DNA from: a phage
Assembly (NCBI GenBank): GCA_012747475.1
Contig: GCA_012747475.1_3928.1
Length of the DNA stretch: 64,000 bases
Direction: 5' to 3' (one strand)
The notes beneath the pieces are model-generated. The model saw nothing but the letters and a program-made list of their open reading frames with translations. It had not been told where the DNA came from and ran no database searches. Below, piece by piece: positions 6,072 to 25,504 of this stretch. Position numbers and translations under genes: made by a program. The stretch's first letter is position 1, and the number at the start of each line of letters is the position of its first letter.

Positions 6072-6147
6072 GCTCCTATCGTATAATTGGCTATTACGGT
6101 TGCCTTGTAAGCAACTTATCAGGGTTCGAATCCTTGTGGGAGCACCA
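6072..6147 (+). tRNA. tRNA-Thr (anticodon TGT)
   Basis: Acceptor GCTCCTA/TGGGAGC, anticodon stem GTTGC/GCAAC with loop CTTGTAA, T-loop TTCGAAT, A + CCA. Confidence 0.7.
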
Positions 6148-6242
6148 ATTCAGAGGTCAAGTGAAAGACCGCTGGTGTCAACTGAAGACCGTAACAAATT
6201 CCACGGAGTTGAGTTAGCGGCACAACTTCAGACCTCTTTCAT

Positions 6243-6317
6243 ACTCGCTTAGTTTATATGGTAAAACATCACCCTTACAAGATGAAGAAAAAGGTTCAAG
6301 TCCTTTAGTGAGTACCA
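6243..6317 (+). tRNA. tRNA-Val (anticodon TAC)
   Basis: Acceptor ACTCGCT/AGTGAGT, D-stem GTTT/AAAC, anticodon loop CTTACAA, perfect T-arm AAAGG-TTCAAGT-CCTTT, A + CCA. Confidence 0.65.
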
Positions 6318-6318
6318 T

Positions 6319-6396
6319 GTTCCAGTATCCCAATTGGCAGAGGATGCAAGCTCAAACCTTGTATTAGTGACGGTTCGAATCCGTCTTGGAACACCA
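6319..6396 (+). tRNA. tRNA-Leu-like (anticodon CAA), short variable arm
   Basis: Acceptor GTTCCAG/TTGGAAC + A + CCA, D-loop CAATTGGCAGAG, anticodon stem GCAAG/CTTGT with loop CTCAAAC, T-arm GACGG-TTCGAAT-CCGTC. Confidence 0.55.
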
Positions 6397-6401
6397 ATTT
6401 T

Positions 6402-6477
6402 GCAGGATTAGTTCAAATGGATAGAGTAACAGTCTACGAAGCTGTTAATAGGGGTTCGAATCCCTTATCCTGCGCCA
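6402..6477 (+). tRNA. tRNA-Arg (anticodon ACG)
   Basis: Acceptor GCAGGAT/ATCCTGC (perfect), anticodon stem ACAGT/GCTGT with loop CTACGAA, T-loop TTCGAAT, G + CCA. Confidence 0.7.
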
Positions 6478-6496
6478 ATTTAAAGAGGCTATTTAG

Positions 6497-7054
6497 ATGA
6501 GATATTTGAAGTATGCTTCATGGATTTTCTTAGCTTTGTTAGAGCCATTTGCAGCAATCTTAGCAGTTATCTTAGCACCTTTCGTAGTTCCATTCTACAG
6601 TGAGAAGAAAGGACATCTGCCTTTCGGGTTCAGATGGATGGAAACTTATGACAACCCAATTGATGGTGATGAAGGTCACGTTAAAAGATGGGCTAATATT
6701 AGATGGATTGGTAAACTAGGTGTCTACATGCAAAGAGTCGGATGGCTCTGGAGAAACAAAGCTTATAACTTCTCTTACCATGTATTAGGGAGAGATGTAA
6801 AAGATGTTACTAAGTGGAAAGGTAATATCAACGTAAGTTCTGACCCTGAAGATAATCAGACAGGTTATCTCCTAATGTGGAACAGTAATGCTTGGGGATT
6901 ATTCGCTTTTATCCCATCAATTAAAATCTTTGGTAAACAATTTTACTGGAGAATTTATATTGGATGGAAACTAAAAAGTGTTGTCCCAGAAGAAAGAGCA
7001 TTCTCAAGGGAAAGAGTTATGTTGGCATTCTTTATTCATCCACTGAGAAAGTAA
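6497..7054 (+). CDS. hypothetical membrane protein
   Basis: ORF track; AAGAGG SD; hydrophobic N-terminal segment (IFLALLEPFAAILAVILAPFVVPF); embedded in tRNA cluster. Confidence 0.6.
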   Translation: MRYLKYASWIFLALLEPFAAILAVILAPFVVPFYSEKKGHLPFGFRWMETYDNPIDGDEGHVKRWANIRWIGKLGVYMQRVGWLWRNKAYNFSYHVLGRDVKDVTKWKGNINVSSDPEDNQTGYLLMWNSNAWGLFAFIPSIKIFGKQFYWRIYIGWKLKSVVPEERAFSRERVMLAFFIHPLRK

Positions 7055-7062
7055 AGATTTAA

Positions 7063-7138
7063 AGGGGATTAGTTTACAAGGTTAAAACCTCGGTCTTTGA
7101 AATCGAAGAAGTTGGTTCAATTCCAACATCCCCCGCCA
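7063..7138 (+). tRNA. tRNA-Gln (anticodon TTG)
   Basis: Acceptor AGGGGAT/ATCCCCC (A1:C72 mismatch), D-stem GTTT/AAAC, anticodon loop CTTTGAA, perfect T-arm GTTGG-TTCAATT-CCAAC, G + CCA. Confidence 0.65.
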
Positions 7139-7140
7139 AT

Positions 7141-7219
7141 GCTCCATTACTCCAATTGGCAGAGAGGCCAGACTTAAAATCTGTGTTATGTATCGGTTCG
7201 AATCCGATATGGAGTACCA
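7141..7219 (+). tRNA. tRNA-Leu-like (anticodon TAA), short variable arm
   Basis: Acceptor GCTCCAT/ATGGAGT + A + CCA, D-loop CAATTGGCAGAG, anticodon loop CTTAAAA, perfect T-arm ATCGG-TTCGAAT-CCGAT. Confidence 0.55.
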
Positions 7220-7224
7220 AATTT

Positions 7225-7300
7225 AGCGGTATAGCATAACTGGCAATGCAGCAGTCTCTGAAGCTGTCCTATTAAGGTTCAAATCCTTATGCCGCTGCCA
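7225..7300 (+). tRNA. tRNA-Gln (anticodon CTG)
   Basis: Acceptor AGCGGTA/TGCCGCT, D-stem GCAT/ATGC, anticodon stem GCAGT/GCTGT with loop CTCTGAA, perfect T-arm TAAGG-TTCAAAT-CCTTA, G + CCA. Confidence 0.55.
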
Positions 7301-7304
7301 CTTC

Positions 7305-7328
7305 TAAGGATTCTTACGAGAGTCCTTA
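7305..7328 (+). other. hairpin with conserved 12-nt loop TTCTTACGAGAG (copy 2)
   Basis: Stem TAAGGA/TCCTTA; loop shares TTCTTACGAG with hairpin at 3808..3831. Confidence 0.45.
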
Positions 7329-7331
7329 AAT

Positions 7332-7407
7332 GTGGCCTTATCATAAATGGTAATGACCCATGCTGTGAACATGGTCTATACGGGTTCAAATCCCGTAGGT
7401 CACCCCA
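7332..7407 (+). tRNA. tRNA-His (anticodon GTG)
   Basis: Acceptor GTGGCCT/AGGTCAC, perfect anticodon stem CCATG/CATGG with loop CTGTGAA, perfect T-arm ACGGG-TTCAAAT-CCCGT, C + CCA. Confidence 0.7.
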
Positions 7408-7412
7408 ATTTA

Positions 7413-7489
7413 TAGTCCAAGTAGCTTATATGGTTAAAGCGCGTGTCTGAAAAACATGAGAAGAGGGTTCAAATCCCACTGGACTACCA
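7413..7489 (+). tRNA. tRNA-Phe (anticodon GAA)
   Basis: Acceptor TAGTCCA/TGGACTA region, anticodon stem CGTGT/ACATG with loop CTGAAAA, T-loop TTCAAAT, CCA at 3' end (exact acceptor register ambiguous). Confidence 0.6.
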
Positions 7490-7505
7490 ATTTCAAAGGT
7501 GCTTA

Positions 7506-8240
7506 ATGAAAGAGATGACAGAACAAGGTAAGGAGATTTTTAATCTCTTAAAAACTGGTAAAGGGTTTTCTAACCCCCTTATTACTGGTGCAGCAGTTCT
7601 CGGTGGAACCGTAGCTGCCTCCACATCACTTGTAAGCTCTATTAGTTCTGTATCAGACCCTACAGTAAAAGATAAGCTTGTTGCTGCTGGACTTACAACA
7701 GTTCTGCTTAACAGCTTTACCACGAGTCTGGCAAGCACTACATCAACTACCAAAACACTGACAGATTACGGTCAAAAGTCCATTGATGAGTTTTCATCAC
7801 GTATGCAGGTAGCAAAAGGTTATTCTAATGTTATGGGTGCAGCAGGTGAACAAGTTGGCTGTACACCATTTAGTGGTATTATGGGTGTTGCTACAGAGTA
7901 TGGTCAAAAAGCTATTGATACGATTAACAGTGCACTAGATAGTGTTAATGGTGTGTTAAGTGACTTACAAGATGCTATTGACAAAGGTCTTGATACTATT
8001 TCTGATTTAGCTGAGCAAGCTGTTAGTAAGATTAATGAAGGTATTTCAAAAATTACAGCTTATGCAGATGAAGTTGTGCAGATGATTGAAGAAGAAGCTG
8101 CTCTTATTGCAGAGTACCTTAAAACGAATATCAATGGGTTCTTAGCAGGCATCTTACCAGACTGGTTTGATGATGCTTGTAAAACTGGTGTAATTGACAC
8201 TATTGCAACACCAGAAATGAAGAACGCATTACAGAAATAA
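7506..8240 (+). CDS. hypothetical protein
   Basis: ORF 7443..8240 trimmed to the internal ATG at 7506 to avoid overlapping tRNA-Phe; AAAGG SD. Confidence 0.5.
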   Translation: MKEMTEQGKEIFNLLKTGKGFSNPLITGAAVLGGTVAASTSLVSSISSVSDPTVKDKLVAAGLTTVLLNSFTTSLASTTSTTKTLTDYGQKSIDEFSSRMQVAKGYSNVMGAAGEQVGCTPFSGIMGVATEYGQKAIDTINSALDSVNGVLSDLQDAIDKGLDTISDLAEQAVSKINEGISKITAYADEVVQMIEEEAALIAEYLKTNINGFLAGILPDWFDDACKTGVIDTIATPEMKNALQK

Positions 8241-8242
8241 AT

Positions 8243-8335
8243 GGAAGATTAACCCTAAAAGGTAAGGGAGCAGTTTGCTAAACTGCCAGTAGCTGAGAAA
8301 TCGGTGTACCAGTTCAAGTCTGGTATCTTCCTCCA
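8243..8335 (+). tRNA. tRNA-Ser (anticodon GCT), long variable arm
   Basis: 93 nt; perfect acceptor GGAAGAT/ATCTTCC, perfect anticodon stem GCAGT/ACTGC with loop TTGCTAA, T-arm ACCAG-TTCAAGT-CTGGT, T + CCA. Confidence 0.65.
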
Positions 8336-8339
8336 ATTT

Positions 8340-8415
8340 GAATCCGTGACAGAAATGGCTATGTGCCTGTCTGCAAAACAGGTTTATAAGGGTTCGAGTC
8401 CCTTCGGATTCTCCA
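8340..8415 (+). tRNA. tRNA-Cys (anticodon GCA)
   Basis: Perfect acceptor GAATCCG/CGGATTC, perfect anticodon stem CCTGT/ACAGG with loop CTGCAAA, perfect T-arm AAGGG-TTCGAGT-CCCTT, T + CCA. Confidence 0.7.
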
Positions 8416-17017: not shown

Positions 17018-17591
17018 AAAAGGTCTAGTTAGAACCTTAGTGGATGTTATTGGTCACAGACTAGCTCGTGATAAAAATAATAGACCAAACGTAATTAGAG
17101 CTTACCCTTCTGATAACTCAAATGACAAAGGTTTAAAACCTGACCAGCCATTTATTACCGTATATTGTCAAGATGCTGCAACACCTTATGGTTGGGTTCT
17201 TGATAAGTTTGTTGAGGATGATGTAGTTTGCTACAGAATTGCTTTTCAGATTCCTGTACTAATTACGGTGAATGGTAAAGGTGCTCACAGTATTATGCTT
17301 GAGCTTAAACAACGATTAGAGATGAGTTCAGTCAGAGATTTAATTCTTGAAGAGACAGGAGCTACAGTTCTAGACACTGGAGCTATCCCAAATGACTACA
17401 CTTATCTTAATACAGATTTCGAAAATTCTGCACCTCTTGTTGTAACTCTTGTAAAAAATTCAGTCCTGAAAGATGAACGTGGAAGTATTATTGAGCGTGT
17501 CATTGTTGATGGTGAATTAGTTTACGAAGAAGGACAAGAGCCACCAGAATATACTATCCATCTAGATGTAGACTCCAAAGGGGTAAAATAA
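16992..17591 (+). CDS. hypothetical protein
   Basis: ORF track. Confidence 0.5.
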   Translation: MQLETAELEKGLVRTLVDVIGHRLARDKNNRPNVIRAYPSDNSNDKGLKPDQPFITVYCQDAATPYGWVLDKFVEDDVVCYRIAFQIPVLITVNGKGAHSIMLELKQRLEMSSVRDLILEETGATVLDTGAIPNDYTYLNTDFENSAPLVVTLVKNSVLKDERGSIIERVIVDGELVYEEGQEPPEYTIHLDVDSKGVK

Positions 17592-18944
17592 ATGTGGAAT
17601 CCAATTGTTAATGTAGATATTACATTGAACACCGCAGGAACTACAAGAGAAGGTTTTGGGCTGCCACTATTTTTAGCTTCAACAGATAACTTTGAAGAAA
17701 GAGTCCGTGGTTACACTTCCTTAACTGAAGTTGCTGAAGATTTCGATGAAAACTCTGCTGCATATAAGGCTGCTAAACAACTTTGGAGTCAGACTCCTAA
17801 AGTAACTCAGCTTTATATTGGTAGACGTGCTATGCAGTACACTGTATCAATTCCTGATGAGGTTACTGAGAGCACCGACTATTCTTTAACTGTAGCTGTG
17901 AGCGGTGGAGTTTCTCAGCCATTCCAGTACACTTCACAGTCAGAAGATACTGCTGAGAAGGTGCTACAGCAGCTTAAAACTCAGATTGAAGCAGAACCTT
18001 CTGTAAAAGACCTTGTTACTGTCAATGTAACTGGTGCTGGCGGTTCAGCAACAATGGTAATCACCAAAGCTGGTGACAATGACTTCGTGAAGGTTACCAC
18101 TACAGCACAAACAGTGTCAATTGCAAGTACAACTGCTGACACAGCATCGACTGCTCTGGCAGCTATTGAGGCTTATTCAACTGACTGGTATTTCATTGCA
18201 GCAGAAGATAGAACTCAACAGTTTGTCTTAGCAATGGCTTCTGAGATTCAAGCTCGTAAGAAGATTTTCTTTACAGCTAACTCTGATGTAACAGCCCTAC
18301 AAGGTACAGAATTAGCTAGTGCAAATGATGTTCCAGCACAGCTTGCTAAGAGCCAGTACACTCGTACCGTTTGCTTGTGGCATCACACAGCGGCAGAAGA
18401 CTATCCAGAAATGGCATACATTGCTTATGGTGCTCCGTATGATGCAGGTTCAATTGCTTGGGGTAACGCACAGTTAACTGGTGTAGCTGCTTCTCTACAG
18501 CCATCTAATCAGAGACCTCTGACAAGTATTCAGAAGTCAGCTTTAGATGCACGTCACTGTAACTTTATTGACCTTGATGGTGGTGTTCCAGTGGTTCGTA
18601 GAGGGATTACTTCTGGTGGGGAATGGATTGATATTATCCGTGGTGTTGACTGGTTAGAATCAGACCTGAAAACTTCTCTGAGAGACTTGCTAATTAATCA
18701 GAAGGGTGGTAAGATTACTTATGATGATACTGGTATTACCCGTATTCGTCAAGTCATTGAAACCTCTCTGCAAAGAGCAGTCAACAGAAACTTCCTGTCA
18801 TCTTACACAGTTAATGTTCCTAAAGCCTCTCAAGTTGCTTTAGCAGACAAGAAAGCTCGTATCCTGAAAGACGTTACCTTCTCAGGTATCTTAGCAGGGG
18901 CTATCTTGGATGTTGACTTGAAAGGTACAGTGGCTTACGAATAA
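17592..18944 (+). CDS. tail sheath protein (putative)
   Basis: 450 aa, followed by a ~150-aa tube-like gene, chaperone pair and tape measure: contractile-tail gene order. Confidence 0.5.
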   Translation: MWNPIVNVDITLNTAGTTREGFGLPLFLASTDNFEERVRGYTSLTEVAEDFDENSAAYKAAKQLWSQTPKVTQLYIGRRAMQYTVSIPDEVTESTDYSLTVAVSGGVSQPFQYTSQSEDTAEKVLQQLKTQIEAEPSVKDLVTVNVTGAGGSATMVITKAGDNDFVKVTTTAQTVSIASTTADTASTALAAIEAYSTDWYFIAAEDRTQQFVLAMASEIQARKKIFFTANSDVTALQGTELASANDVPAQLAKSQYTRTVCLWHHTAAEDYPEMAYIAYGAPYDAGSIAWGNAQLTGVAASLQPSNQRPLTSIQKSALDARHCNFIDLDGGVPVVRRGITSGGEWIDIIRGVDWLESDLKTSLRDLLINQKGGKITYDDTGITRIRQVIETSLQRAVNRNFLSSYTVNVPKASQVALADKKARILKDVTFSGILAGAILDVDLKGTVAYE

Positions 18945-18959
18945 TAGAGGTAAATTGGA

Positions 18960-19406
18960 ATGGCTATGTATCAGCAATATTCCCCTAAAGACGTTGTGTG
19001 TAGCTGGAATGGTATTGCCATTGAAGGCTTTGCCCCAGACTCATTCTTACGTCTACAGAGAACATCACCACTTGTGACACCAGTTGTAGGTGCGGGTGGT
19101 CAAGTTGCTCTGACAAGAAATGCAGACAAGACAGGTACTATTGAGATTGAGCTAATGCAGACTTCTCTCTCTAACCAGATGCTTTCTGCAATTCAAGCTA
19201 AACAAGACAATATGGAACTTGAAGAAGATATCTCTTCTAACTTCGTAATCTACGACCCATCAGGCTCTGTTCTGGCAACTGGTATTAATGCTTGGTTGCA
19301 GGAATTACCGCAGATTGAACTTGGTCGTGACCAGAACTCTAAAACTTGGATTTTTGGTTGTGAGAAGCTAGACTACACTTCTACAATTCCAGCGTCAAGT
19401 GTTTAA
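18960..19406 (+). CDS. tail tube protein (putative)
   Basis: 148 aa following sheath-like gene; terminator directly downstream. Confidence 0.5.
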   Translation: MAMYQQYSPKDVVCSWNGIAIEGFAPDSFLRLQRTSPLVTPVVGAGGQVALTRNADKTGTIEIELMQTSLSNQMLSAIQAKQDNMELEEDISSNFVIYDPSGSVLATGINAWLQELPQIELGRDQNSKTWIFGCEKLDYTSTIPASSV

Positions 19407-19418
19407 TAAATCCTATAA

Positions 19419-19450
19419 GGGGGAGACTTTAAAAGGTCTTCCCCTTTTTT
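19419..19450 (+). terminator. rho-independent terminator
   Basis: 9-bp stem GGGGGAGAC/GTCTTCCCC followed by TTTTTT. Confidence 0.6.
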
Positions 19451-19479
19451 GTTTCTTTTAAAAGTATTAAGGAATCACA

Positions 19480-19878
19480 ATGAAAACAGAATCTAGAGTA
19501 ATTAATGGTAAGAAAGTAAATATCGTTCTGCTTGGGGCAAGAGATGGTATTAAGATGTCTATGAAGTTGGGTAAAATTGTTGTTCCAACCTTTGCACAGA
19601 TGCTGTCAAGTCTGACTGATAAAGACAAGAAAGAAGCTCCAATGGTTCCATTTAAAGAACTTGTTGAAGCTTGTTTTGACAGAATTGAAGAAATTAACCT
19701 TGAAGAAATGGCTACATTACTATTTCAAGGGGCAACTGTCGATGACTTCCCACTTAATATTGATACGTACTTCCAAGCAAACTACGGTGAGTTTATTGAT
19801 TACTTAGCATTTGCGCTGGAGGCAAACTTCGGAAGTTTTTTCGAAGCAAGCATTTTCAAAAGCCTAACTTCTCAGTAA
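19480..19878 (+). CDS. tail assembly chaperone (putative)
   Basis: 132 aa immediately upstream of tape measure gene; contains slippery heptamer near its 3' end. Confidence 0.5.
   Translation: MKTESRVINGKKVNIVLLGARDGIKMSMKLGKIVVPTFAQMLSSLTDKDKKEAPMVPFKELVEACFDRIEEINLEEMATLLFQGATVDDFPLNIDTYFQANYGEFIDYLAFALEANFGSFFEASIFKSLTSQ
19836..19842 (+). other. candidate -1 programmed frameshift site T_TTT_TTC
   Basis: X_XXY_YYZ heptamer in the zero frame of ORF 19480..19878; the -1 frame is open from here into ORF 19881..20120. Confidence 0.45.
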
Positions 19879-19880
19879 AC

Positions 19881-20119
19881 ATGGGTAACACTCTACAGAC
19901 ACCACTAACTGATGCTGCTGTAGAGGCAACCTATGAAGAAGCAGACGAGATGAAATTTGTGCTTGCTATTTATGGTATGGAAGGGTGTAAAGAAACACTT
20001 GACCAACTCTTTGCTATGACATTCTCTGATTTATTATCATTGAGACAATTTCTTGAGATTCAGAGGTCGTATAAAGAGGAAATTGCTTACAACGAACTTA
20101 GAAGAGCAGGAAAAATGTA

Positions 20120-20120
<1 letters not shown>
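19881..20120 (+). CDS. tail assembly chaperone frameshift extension (putative)
   Basis: 79-aa ORF in the -1 frame relative to 19480..19878, no strong SD of its own, directly upstream of tape measure. Confidence 0.45.

Positions 20121-25504
<5,384 letters not shown>

Follow-up and report, generated by a model that had tools for sequence, protein, structure and literature searches.

The stretch of phage DNA analysed here (the window; 64,000 nucleotides (nt) of contig GCA_012747475.1_3928.1) belongs to a Felix O1-like phage of E. coli and carries, between its tail tube and tape measure genes, two small open reading frames (ORFs) that resemble a G/GT-type tail assembly chaperone pair joined by a programmed -1 ribosomal frameshift. 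A Megablast search with positions 17500-22400 returned 298 phage records, the best of them from Felixounavirus Escherichia phages (KEP3, wV8 and the O157 typing phages) at 98-99% identity. Over 721 nt at the chaperone locus, identity to Escherichia typing phage 1 is 99.9%, and Felixounavirus records with a known chaperone frameshift are 96-99% identical to the window at the DNA level. The genus is currently placed in the Andersonviridae, Ounavirinae. The genes for the sheath, the tube, G, T and the tape measure protein follow one another on the same strand, so that the G/T pair has the position typical of G/GT systems. The G product, of 132 amino acids (aa), scored 71.5 bits against PF21822 (Phage_TAC_15), for which the gathering cutoff is 22, with residues 9-124 aligned to profile positions 1-124 of 127, and is thus a member of that family. 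G is preceded by a Shine-Dalgarno (SD) sequence, AAGGA, with a predicted pairing energy (dG) of -6.1.

Table. Features of the chaperone locus and its neighbours in window coordinates
Feature	Position	Strand	Evidence or details
Tail sheath gene	17592..18944	+	DUF3383 and phrog_205 matches
Tail tube gene, 148 aa	18960..19406	+	Pfam KPP10_Orf10 3e-7; phrog_280 1e-47
Intrinsic terminator-like hairpin and T-run, between the tube gene and G	19417..19446	+	13-bp stem, then TTTTGTTTCT
G (also TAC-N), tail assembly chaperone, zero-frame product, 132 aa, 14.8 kDa	19480..19878	+	Pfam Phage_TAC_15 E = 1.2e-19; phrog_1613 8e-49
Overlap in which zero and -1 frames are both open, 26 codons	19800..19878	+	Frame analysis
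SD-like GGAGG, candidate stimulator via 16S rRNA pairing	19818..19822	+	13 nt 5' of the heptamer (14 nt before 19837); anti-SD duplex -9.3 kcal/mol
Slippery heptamer T_TTT_TTC	19836..19842	+	Zero-frame phase AGT(19834) TTT(19837) TTC(19840)
-1 frame part of the predicted GT fusion, 92 codons and stop	19842..20120	+	Linker RSKHFQKPNFSVN, then T domain; phrog_4963 'tail assembly chaperone' 3e-55
Candidate downstream RNA structure, 121 nt, clade-specific	19846..19966	+	Stem 19846-19858/19951-19966 (13 bp, 3-nt bulge) around hairpin 19880-19935
79-aa ORF (T) as gene callers draw it	19881..20120	+	No SD; ATG not kept in relatives
Tape measure protein gene, 742 aa, client of the chaperones	20120..22348	+	Pfam TMP_3 2e-17; phrog_4036 E = 0

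An earlier note on this DNA had placed the heptamer T_TTT_TTC in the zero frame of the ORF upstream of the tape measure gene, with the -1 frame open from there into a 79-aa ORF that lacks a convincing SD, and each of these points was confirmed. The upstream ORF reads GGA AGT TTT TTC GAA around the site, which puts TTTTTTC in the phase X_XXY_YYZ inside the overlap. After a stop at 19797, the -1 frame is open from 19800 to the stop at 20118-20120 and includes ATG 19881. In-frame X_XXY_YYZ heptamers (Y = A or T) number 43 in the 17,987 codons of the window; as chance would place about 0.06 of them in a 26-codon overlap, the presence of the heptamer alone is mildly unusual and amounts to weak evidence. 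Among these 43, only the heptamer at 19836-19842 leads into a long -1 ORF (92 codons, versus 33 for the next longest). Motifs of the type H_HH.U_UU.Y are among the efficient E. coli frameshift motifs (Sharma et al. 2014, PMC4066793). U_UU.U_UU.C itself is under-represented in E. coli, shifts at >0.1% without a stimulator and is used in insertion sequence (IS) elements; it permits cognate re-pairing of both tRNA-Phe and fits the tandem-slip rule exactly (PMC4066793). The overlap contains another in-frame slippery motif, U_UU.C (a tetramer, ATT TTC), at 19854-19857, 12 nt 3' of the heptamer.

The best anti-SD duplex 5' of ATG 19881 has a predicted energy of +0.7 kcal/mol, compared to a median of -5.8 over 69 window ORFs, 96% of which pair more strongly. 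It is weaker also than the median of all ATG triplets. The downstream ORF lacks initiation signals of its own, as expected for the second partner of a G/GT pair, and most likely is not an independent gene. A tandem slip at the heptamer would instead produce a GT protein of 213 aa (24.3 kDa) that reads ...EANFGSFF followed by RSKHFQKPNFSVNMGNTLQ..., with the linker RSKHFQKPNFSVN leading into MGNTLQ...; the predicted junction peptide is ANFGSFFRSKHF.... When the fusion was used to search PDB sequences, only chance-level matches (E above 0.5) were obtained.

We compared the locus in Mooglevirus, Suspvirus, Kolesnikvirus (phiEa21-4 and Roscha1), Yersinia phage P778, Hafnia phage SarahDanielle, Pectobacterium phage Wc4-1 and, from the Vequintavirinae, Cronobacter phage CR8 (Certrevirus) and Escherichia phage Av-05 (Avunavirus). 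The G proteins of these lineages are between 83% and 25% identical to that of the window. Every lineage has a zero-frame TTTTTTC where the homologous site is expected, and the -1 extensions, 92-124 codons long, terminate at the tape measure gene. Eight columns are invariant in amino acid across nine lineages; six of these columns use two to four codons, and only the TTT TTC of the heptamer is invariant in codon as well. The codon ahead of TTT TTC always ends in T (AGT or TGT) across the nine lineages. The possible shift site is further narrowed by the limits of the overlap in relatives. P778 is the tightest example, since its -1 frame opens one codon ahead of the heptamer and its zero frame closes nine codons past it. 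The -1 extensions of phiEa21-4, CR8 and Av-05 contain no start codon (ATG, GTG or TTG) before the conserved T domain, and T should therefore be producible in these phages only as a fusion; in the phiEa21-4 record the second ORF is not annotated at all. The annotated T starts of P778 and the Hafnia phage are TTG or GTG codons that cut into conserved sequence. The T domain is conserved at the protein level across the Ounavirinae and Vequintavirinae. At the DNA level, 202 of 299 phage records show 99% identity or more over the 70 nt surrounding the site, a level reached over the 721-nt gene pair by 3 of 299, and in Erwinia phages the sole stretch detectable by blastn is 19825-19865.

A scan of IMG/VR with the G alignment and the peptide pattern E[AVK]N[FY][GSK][SC]FF yielded 80 confirmed loci, which fall into 20 clusters at 50% identity and range in locus GC from 0.37 to 0.65. 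T_TTT_TTY was found in 80 of 80 (72 TTTTTTC, 8 TTTTTTT), a count that is conditional on the kept S/C-F-F peptide and presumes fully degenerate back-translation by the tool. The Ser codon was AGT or TCT only, the first Phe codon TTT only, and the -1 extensions spanned 76-116 codons. Such constancy at the codon level is far from the frequency of about 1 in 6 per lineage expected by chance. Heptamer conservation exceeds by far what chance or the need to encode the protein would give, and this codon pattern indicates that T_TTT_TTY is under selection. The peptide that ends at the slip site, E-[AVK]-N-[FY]-[GSK]-[SC]-F-F, is the most conserved stretch of the G family and holds four of the eight invariant G residues. 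Because its codons vary, selection before the slip site acts on the peptide, which may serve the chaperone function or exert a nascent-chain effect on shifting.

Altogether, these results suggest, with a probability of roughly 0.87, that the window contains a genuine programmed -1 frameshift site in the G/GT-type tail assembly chaperone pair of Felixounavirus. The G/GT-type arrangement named in the earlier note is borne out by the gene order, the Phage_TAC_15 match, the in-phase heptamer, the link between G and T through the -1 frame and the deposited fusions of Meda and Moogle, which equal those predicted from a slip at the heptamer. The sequence itself shows how the heptamer is phased, that the frame is open and the SD missing, that the site is conserved and that G is a member of its family.

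For the slip, its efficiency and the action of the chaperones we infer the following course. Most ribosomes would read G to its stop and release the 132-aa chaperone. A minority, with tRNA-Phe on UUU in the P site and on UUC in the A site (19837-19842), would slip by -1, re-pair with U_UUU_UU and resume with CGA at 19842; translation of the -1 frame as far as 20120 would then yield the 213-aa G-T fusion. If the pair works like lambda gpG/gpGT and P2 gpE/gpE+E', the tape measure protein would be coated by G and by the G part of GT. The expected partner of the T domain, which would recruit it, is the tube protein encoded upstream of G. In lambda, the G:GT ratio is 30:1 and roles have been assigned to the G and T domains (Atkins 2016 review). 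On that likeness, the short product would be abundant and the fusion rare, and neither chaperone would be found in virions.

The earlier note had also proposed looking for a stimulatory structure downstream of the slip site. One is predicted in the clade formed by Felixounavirus, Suspvirus and Mooglevirus (19846-19966); this does not extend family-wide, and the SD-like GAGG/GGAGG upstream is the better-supported stimulator candidate on sequence grounds. GGAGG in the window lies within the 6-17 nt spacing range used by Sharma et al. 2014 (PMC4066793), and at the sequence level the locus has the upstream SD-like element that characterizes SD-stimulated -1 frameshifting. Of 24 lineage representatives, 19 encode the conserved Glu at this position by GAG and so contain GAGG, where local GAG/GAA usage predicts 9.8 (Poisson-binomial P = 6.7e-5, without phylogenetic correction). 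The slip is probably helped by this candidate stimulator, the GGAGG 13 nt upstream.

The predicted downstream structure starts 4 nt 3' of the heptamer, and its minimum free energy is -36.3 kcal/mol versus -24.0 +/- 3.35 for shuffled sequences (z -3.67; 0/200). SUSP2 (z -4.5) and Moogle (z -2.9) are predicted to fold in the same way. Its arms are invariant across 17 unique alleles and show no covariation, and the 3' arm is not conserved in Kolesnikvirus, the Hafnia, Yersinia and Pectobacterium phages or the Vequintavirinae. Folding of a short downstream window (19843-19902) gave z +1.17, and RNAalifold with seven Ounavirinae sequences gave -0.12 kcal/mol and no covariation. As the latter alignment ended before the 3' arm of the long-range stem, 150 nt were refolded for each lineage. 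Folding was significant in Felixounavirus, Suspvirus and Mooglevirus, and weak in Kolesnikvirus and the Hafnia phage, where other pairing partners were used. A search of Rfam found no family matches. The folding predictions suggest that the 19846-19966 structure may also contribute to the slip in this clade. Within it, the stem 19880-19886/19929-19935 is predicted to pair CAUGGGU, which contains ATG 19881, with ACCUAUG, and to enclose an inner 8-bp stem, CUCUACAG/CUGUAGAG. Moogle and SUSP2 keep an equivalent of this hairpin with a stronger CCCC/GGGG inner stem. If formed as predicted, the hairpin at 19880-19935 would mask the vestigial ATG 19881. Two smaller elements were rejected as stimulators: a hairpin at the slip site itself (19827-19846, -10.7 kcal/mol; z -0.62, not conserved) and a mini-hairpin flagged as terminator-like (19816-19832), which is not conserved across lineages.

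A wider proposal, which we put forward tentatively and consider doubtful, is that throughout the Phage_TAC_15 family the shift is driven by a fixed upstream module rather than by downstream RNA. The module would consist of GAGG/GGAGG, and maybe also of the nascent E-[AV]-N-[FY]-G-S-F-F peptide, and would have been kept across 37%-65% GC, with Felixounavirus and two sister genera adding the 121-nt structure that hides ATG 19881.

Several observations weigh against a programmed frameshift at this locus. The searchable literature holds no protein-level or reporter evidence of the fusion in any Felix O1-like phage, no downstream stimulatory structure conserved family-wide was found, and the IMG/VR count carries the condition given above. 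The G stop (TAA, 19876-19878) is followed by AC and then by ATG 19881, and a gap of 2 nt is a geometry suited to translational coupling, so that some reinitiation giving free T is possible in this genus. In Moogle, moreover, an ATG in the -1 (T) frame has a good SD (dG -7.2). These last two points would suit a pair of independent genes in which ribosomes that terminate at the G stop reinitiate at ATG 19881 to make the 79-aa T and no fusion is needed, and most GenBank records do show two separate coding sequences (CDS). ATG 19881, however, has no SD pairing and is predicted to lie inside a stem. The T start is also unconserved, being absent in phiEa21-4, CR8 and Av-05 and replaced by TTG or GTG within conserved sequence in P778 and the Hafnia phage. 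Independent translation of T would further leave unexplained why in every lineage the open -1 frame reaches back past the heptamer and why the T_TTT_TTY codons do not vary, and we find two independent genes very hard to credit.

The fusion might also arise by other means than a ribosomal slip at the heptamer. One such route would be transcriptional slippage, with an extra U inserted by RNA polymerase at the T6 run so that a minority of the mRNA has G and T in one frame. The slip site is indeed a homopolymer run, the weak hairpin at 19816-19832 lies just upstream of it and the two together are flagged as terminator-like by a terminator scan; the record of phage CL1 has T7 and a fused ORF, and sequence data look the same under transcriptional and ribosomal slippage. 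Efficient slippage by bacterial RNA polymerase, however, needs about 8-9 or more identical bases, and the T run is just 6-7 nt in all 80 relatives and never longer. The hairpin upstream of the run is not conserved across lineages, T7 was seen 0 times and T6 20 times in IMG/VR, and the tandem-slip rule with cognate re-pairing of tRNA-Phe is fitted exactly (PMC4066793). We regard transcriptional slippage as improbable. A -1 shift at the tetramer U_UU.C rather than at the heptamer would give a fusion reading ...FFEASIF-QKPNF.... The tetramer lies within the overlap and is kept in most Ounavirinae, and, given a stimulator, U_UU.C ranks second among E. coli tetramers in its tendency to shift (PMC4066793). 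Alone, however, tetramers are barely shifty (PMC4066793), and this one is absent from Pectobacterium phage Wc4-1, CR8, Av-05 and most metagenomic relatives, all of which keep the heptamer. A shift at the tetramer is the least credible of the explanations that we weighed, and a ribosomal slip at T_TTT_TTC remains the preferred one.

The closest known systems are those of the Felix O1-like Salmonella phage Meda and Citrobacter phages Moogle, Michonne and Mijalis, which have the same genes, heptamer and junction as the window and differ from it in nothing substantive. Also comparable is lambda gpG/gpGT, reportedly the subject of studies by Levin, Hendrix and Casjens in 1993 and by Xu, Hendrix and Duda in 2004, 2013 and 2014. 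The lambda heptamer is G_GGA_AAG. Lambda is a siphovirus, its heptamer differs from the one described here, and the search of PDB sequences with the window fusion gave no detectable similarity to its proteins. For the contractile-tailed phage P2, Christie et al. in 2002 are said to have described gpE/gpE+E' as a pair encoded between tube and tape measure, with a -1 slip on poly-T and an E' without its own initiation site. The window pair likewise lies between tube and tape measure and would use a poly-T -1 slip, although the P2 proteins are of a different family and the P2 frameshift is reported to have been verified experimentally, at about 10%, whereas that of the window is predicted from sequence. 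The E. coli dnaX and IS911-type signals resemble the window in having an upstream SD-like stimulator. They also use a nearby downstream hairpin or branched structure, whereas the downstream structure of the window is clade-specific and without covariation.

A chaperone frameshift is already known for this phage group, having been annotated and published at the level of sequence analysis. In Salmonella phage Meda (Meda_064/065), a two-piece CDS named 'Tape measure chaperone frameshift product' covers exactly this region, and Citrobacter phage Moogle (CPT_Moogle67/68) likewise has a two-piece frameshift CDS. When we constructed the fusions expected from a slip at the heptamer in Meda and Moogle, exact-sequence lookup showed them to be identical to the deposited AXY86324.1 and AIW03804.1/YP_009145710.1. 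The 212-aa chaperone of Michonne (YP_009177317.1) belongs to the same 90% cluster as these fusions. The exact fusion sequence of the window is absent from the protein collection because the closest records annotate two separate ORFs; wV8, Pr103Blw and all other records inspected show two separate chaperone CDS. The frameshift is mentioned in the genome announcements of Moogle and Mijalis (PMC4319497, PMC5543628). The TAC-N genes of 231 Andersonviridae, and also those of Vandenendeviridae, are reported to have an invariant GTTTTT close to their 3' end, from which a conserved -1 frameshift has been argued (Viruses 2025, 18:42; PMC12846349). The 2010 Felix O1 paper does not mention a frameshift (PMC3185647). 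A further paper, PMC6669636, was set aside since it concerns frameshifts in host genes and is unrelated.

Virion proteomics of Felix O1 detected gp63, gp64, gp67 and gp68 and did not detect gp65 or gp66 (PMC3185647). Felix O1 gp64 is the homologue of the window tube protein, and we take gp65 and gp66 to be the two chaperone ORFs from their position between gp64 (tube) and gp67 (tape measure). That gp65 and gp66 are not among the virion proteins is consistent with chaperones that do not enter virions.

What the present analysis adds is modest: conservation at the codon level family-wide, extension of the motif to the Vequintavirinae and to GC-rich metagenomic relatives, and the enrichment of GAGG upstream. 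The locus is one more case of the near-universal chaperone frameshift of long-tailed phages and answers no open question. For annotation, it means that a join() CDS encoding the 213-aa frameshift product should take the place of a separate 79-aa ORF.

In the record of Escherichia phage CL1 (OK040806.1, ~84507), the slip site has T7 instead of T6, which results in a single 213-aa in-frame ORF named 'tape measure chaperone'. Since the T7 variant occurred 0 times and the T6 variant 20 times in IMG/VR, the CL1 T7 is probably a homopolymer sequencing error. If it is real, GT would be the only chaperone product of CL1. Caution is needed with this public record, in which a T7 run fuses both ORFs.

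The start of the tape measure gene overlaps the T stop (ATGTAATG). The terminator-like hairpin between the tube gene and G is carried as a terminator in the wV8 and Meda records and would leave the chaperone and tape measure genes less transcribed than those for the sheath and tube. Elsewhere in the window, 25 tRNA genes lie on the + strand at 3048-8415. They include a gene for tRNA-Phe(GAA) at 7414-7489, the tRNA species that would slip at T_TTT_TTC.

This chaperone region is also found, at 96-97% identity, in GU169904.1 (Staphylococcus phage SA1, 147 kb), MG065664.1 (Campylobacter phage A132) and WP_252560994.1 (Staphylococcus hyicus). These Staphylococcus- and Campylobacter-attributed records are most likely contaminated or chimeric assemblies and not host jumps. 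In LR597658.1/LR597663.1 (VpaE1_ev108/VpaE1_ev78), OQ871557.1 (SUT_S920) and OK040807.1 (C600M2), the two chaperone ORFs bear the names 'head closure protein' or 'tail completion protein', which appear to have been shifted or wrongly transferred.

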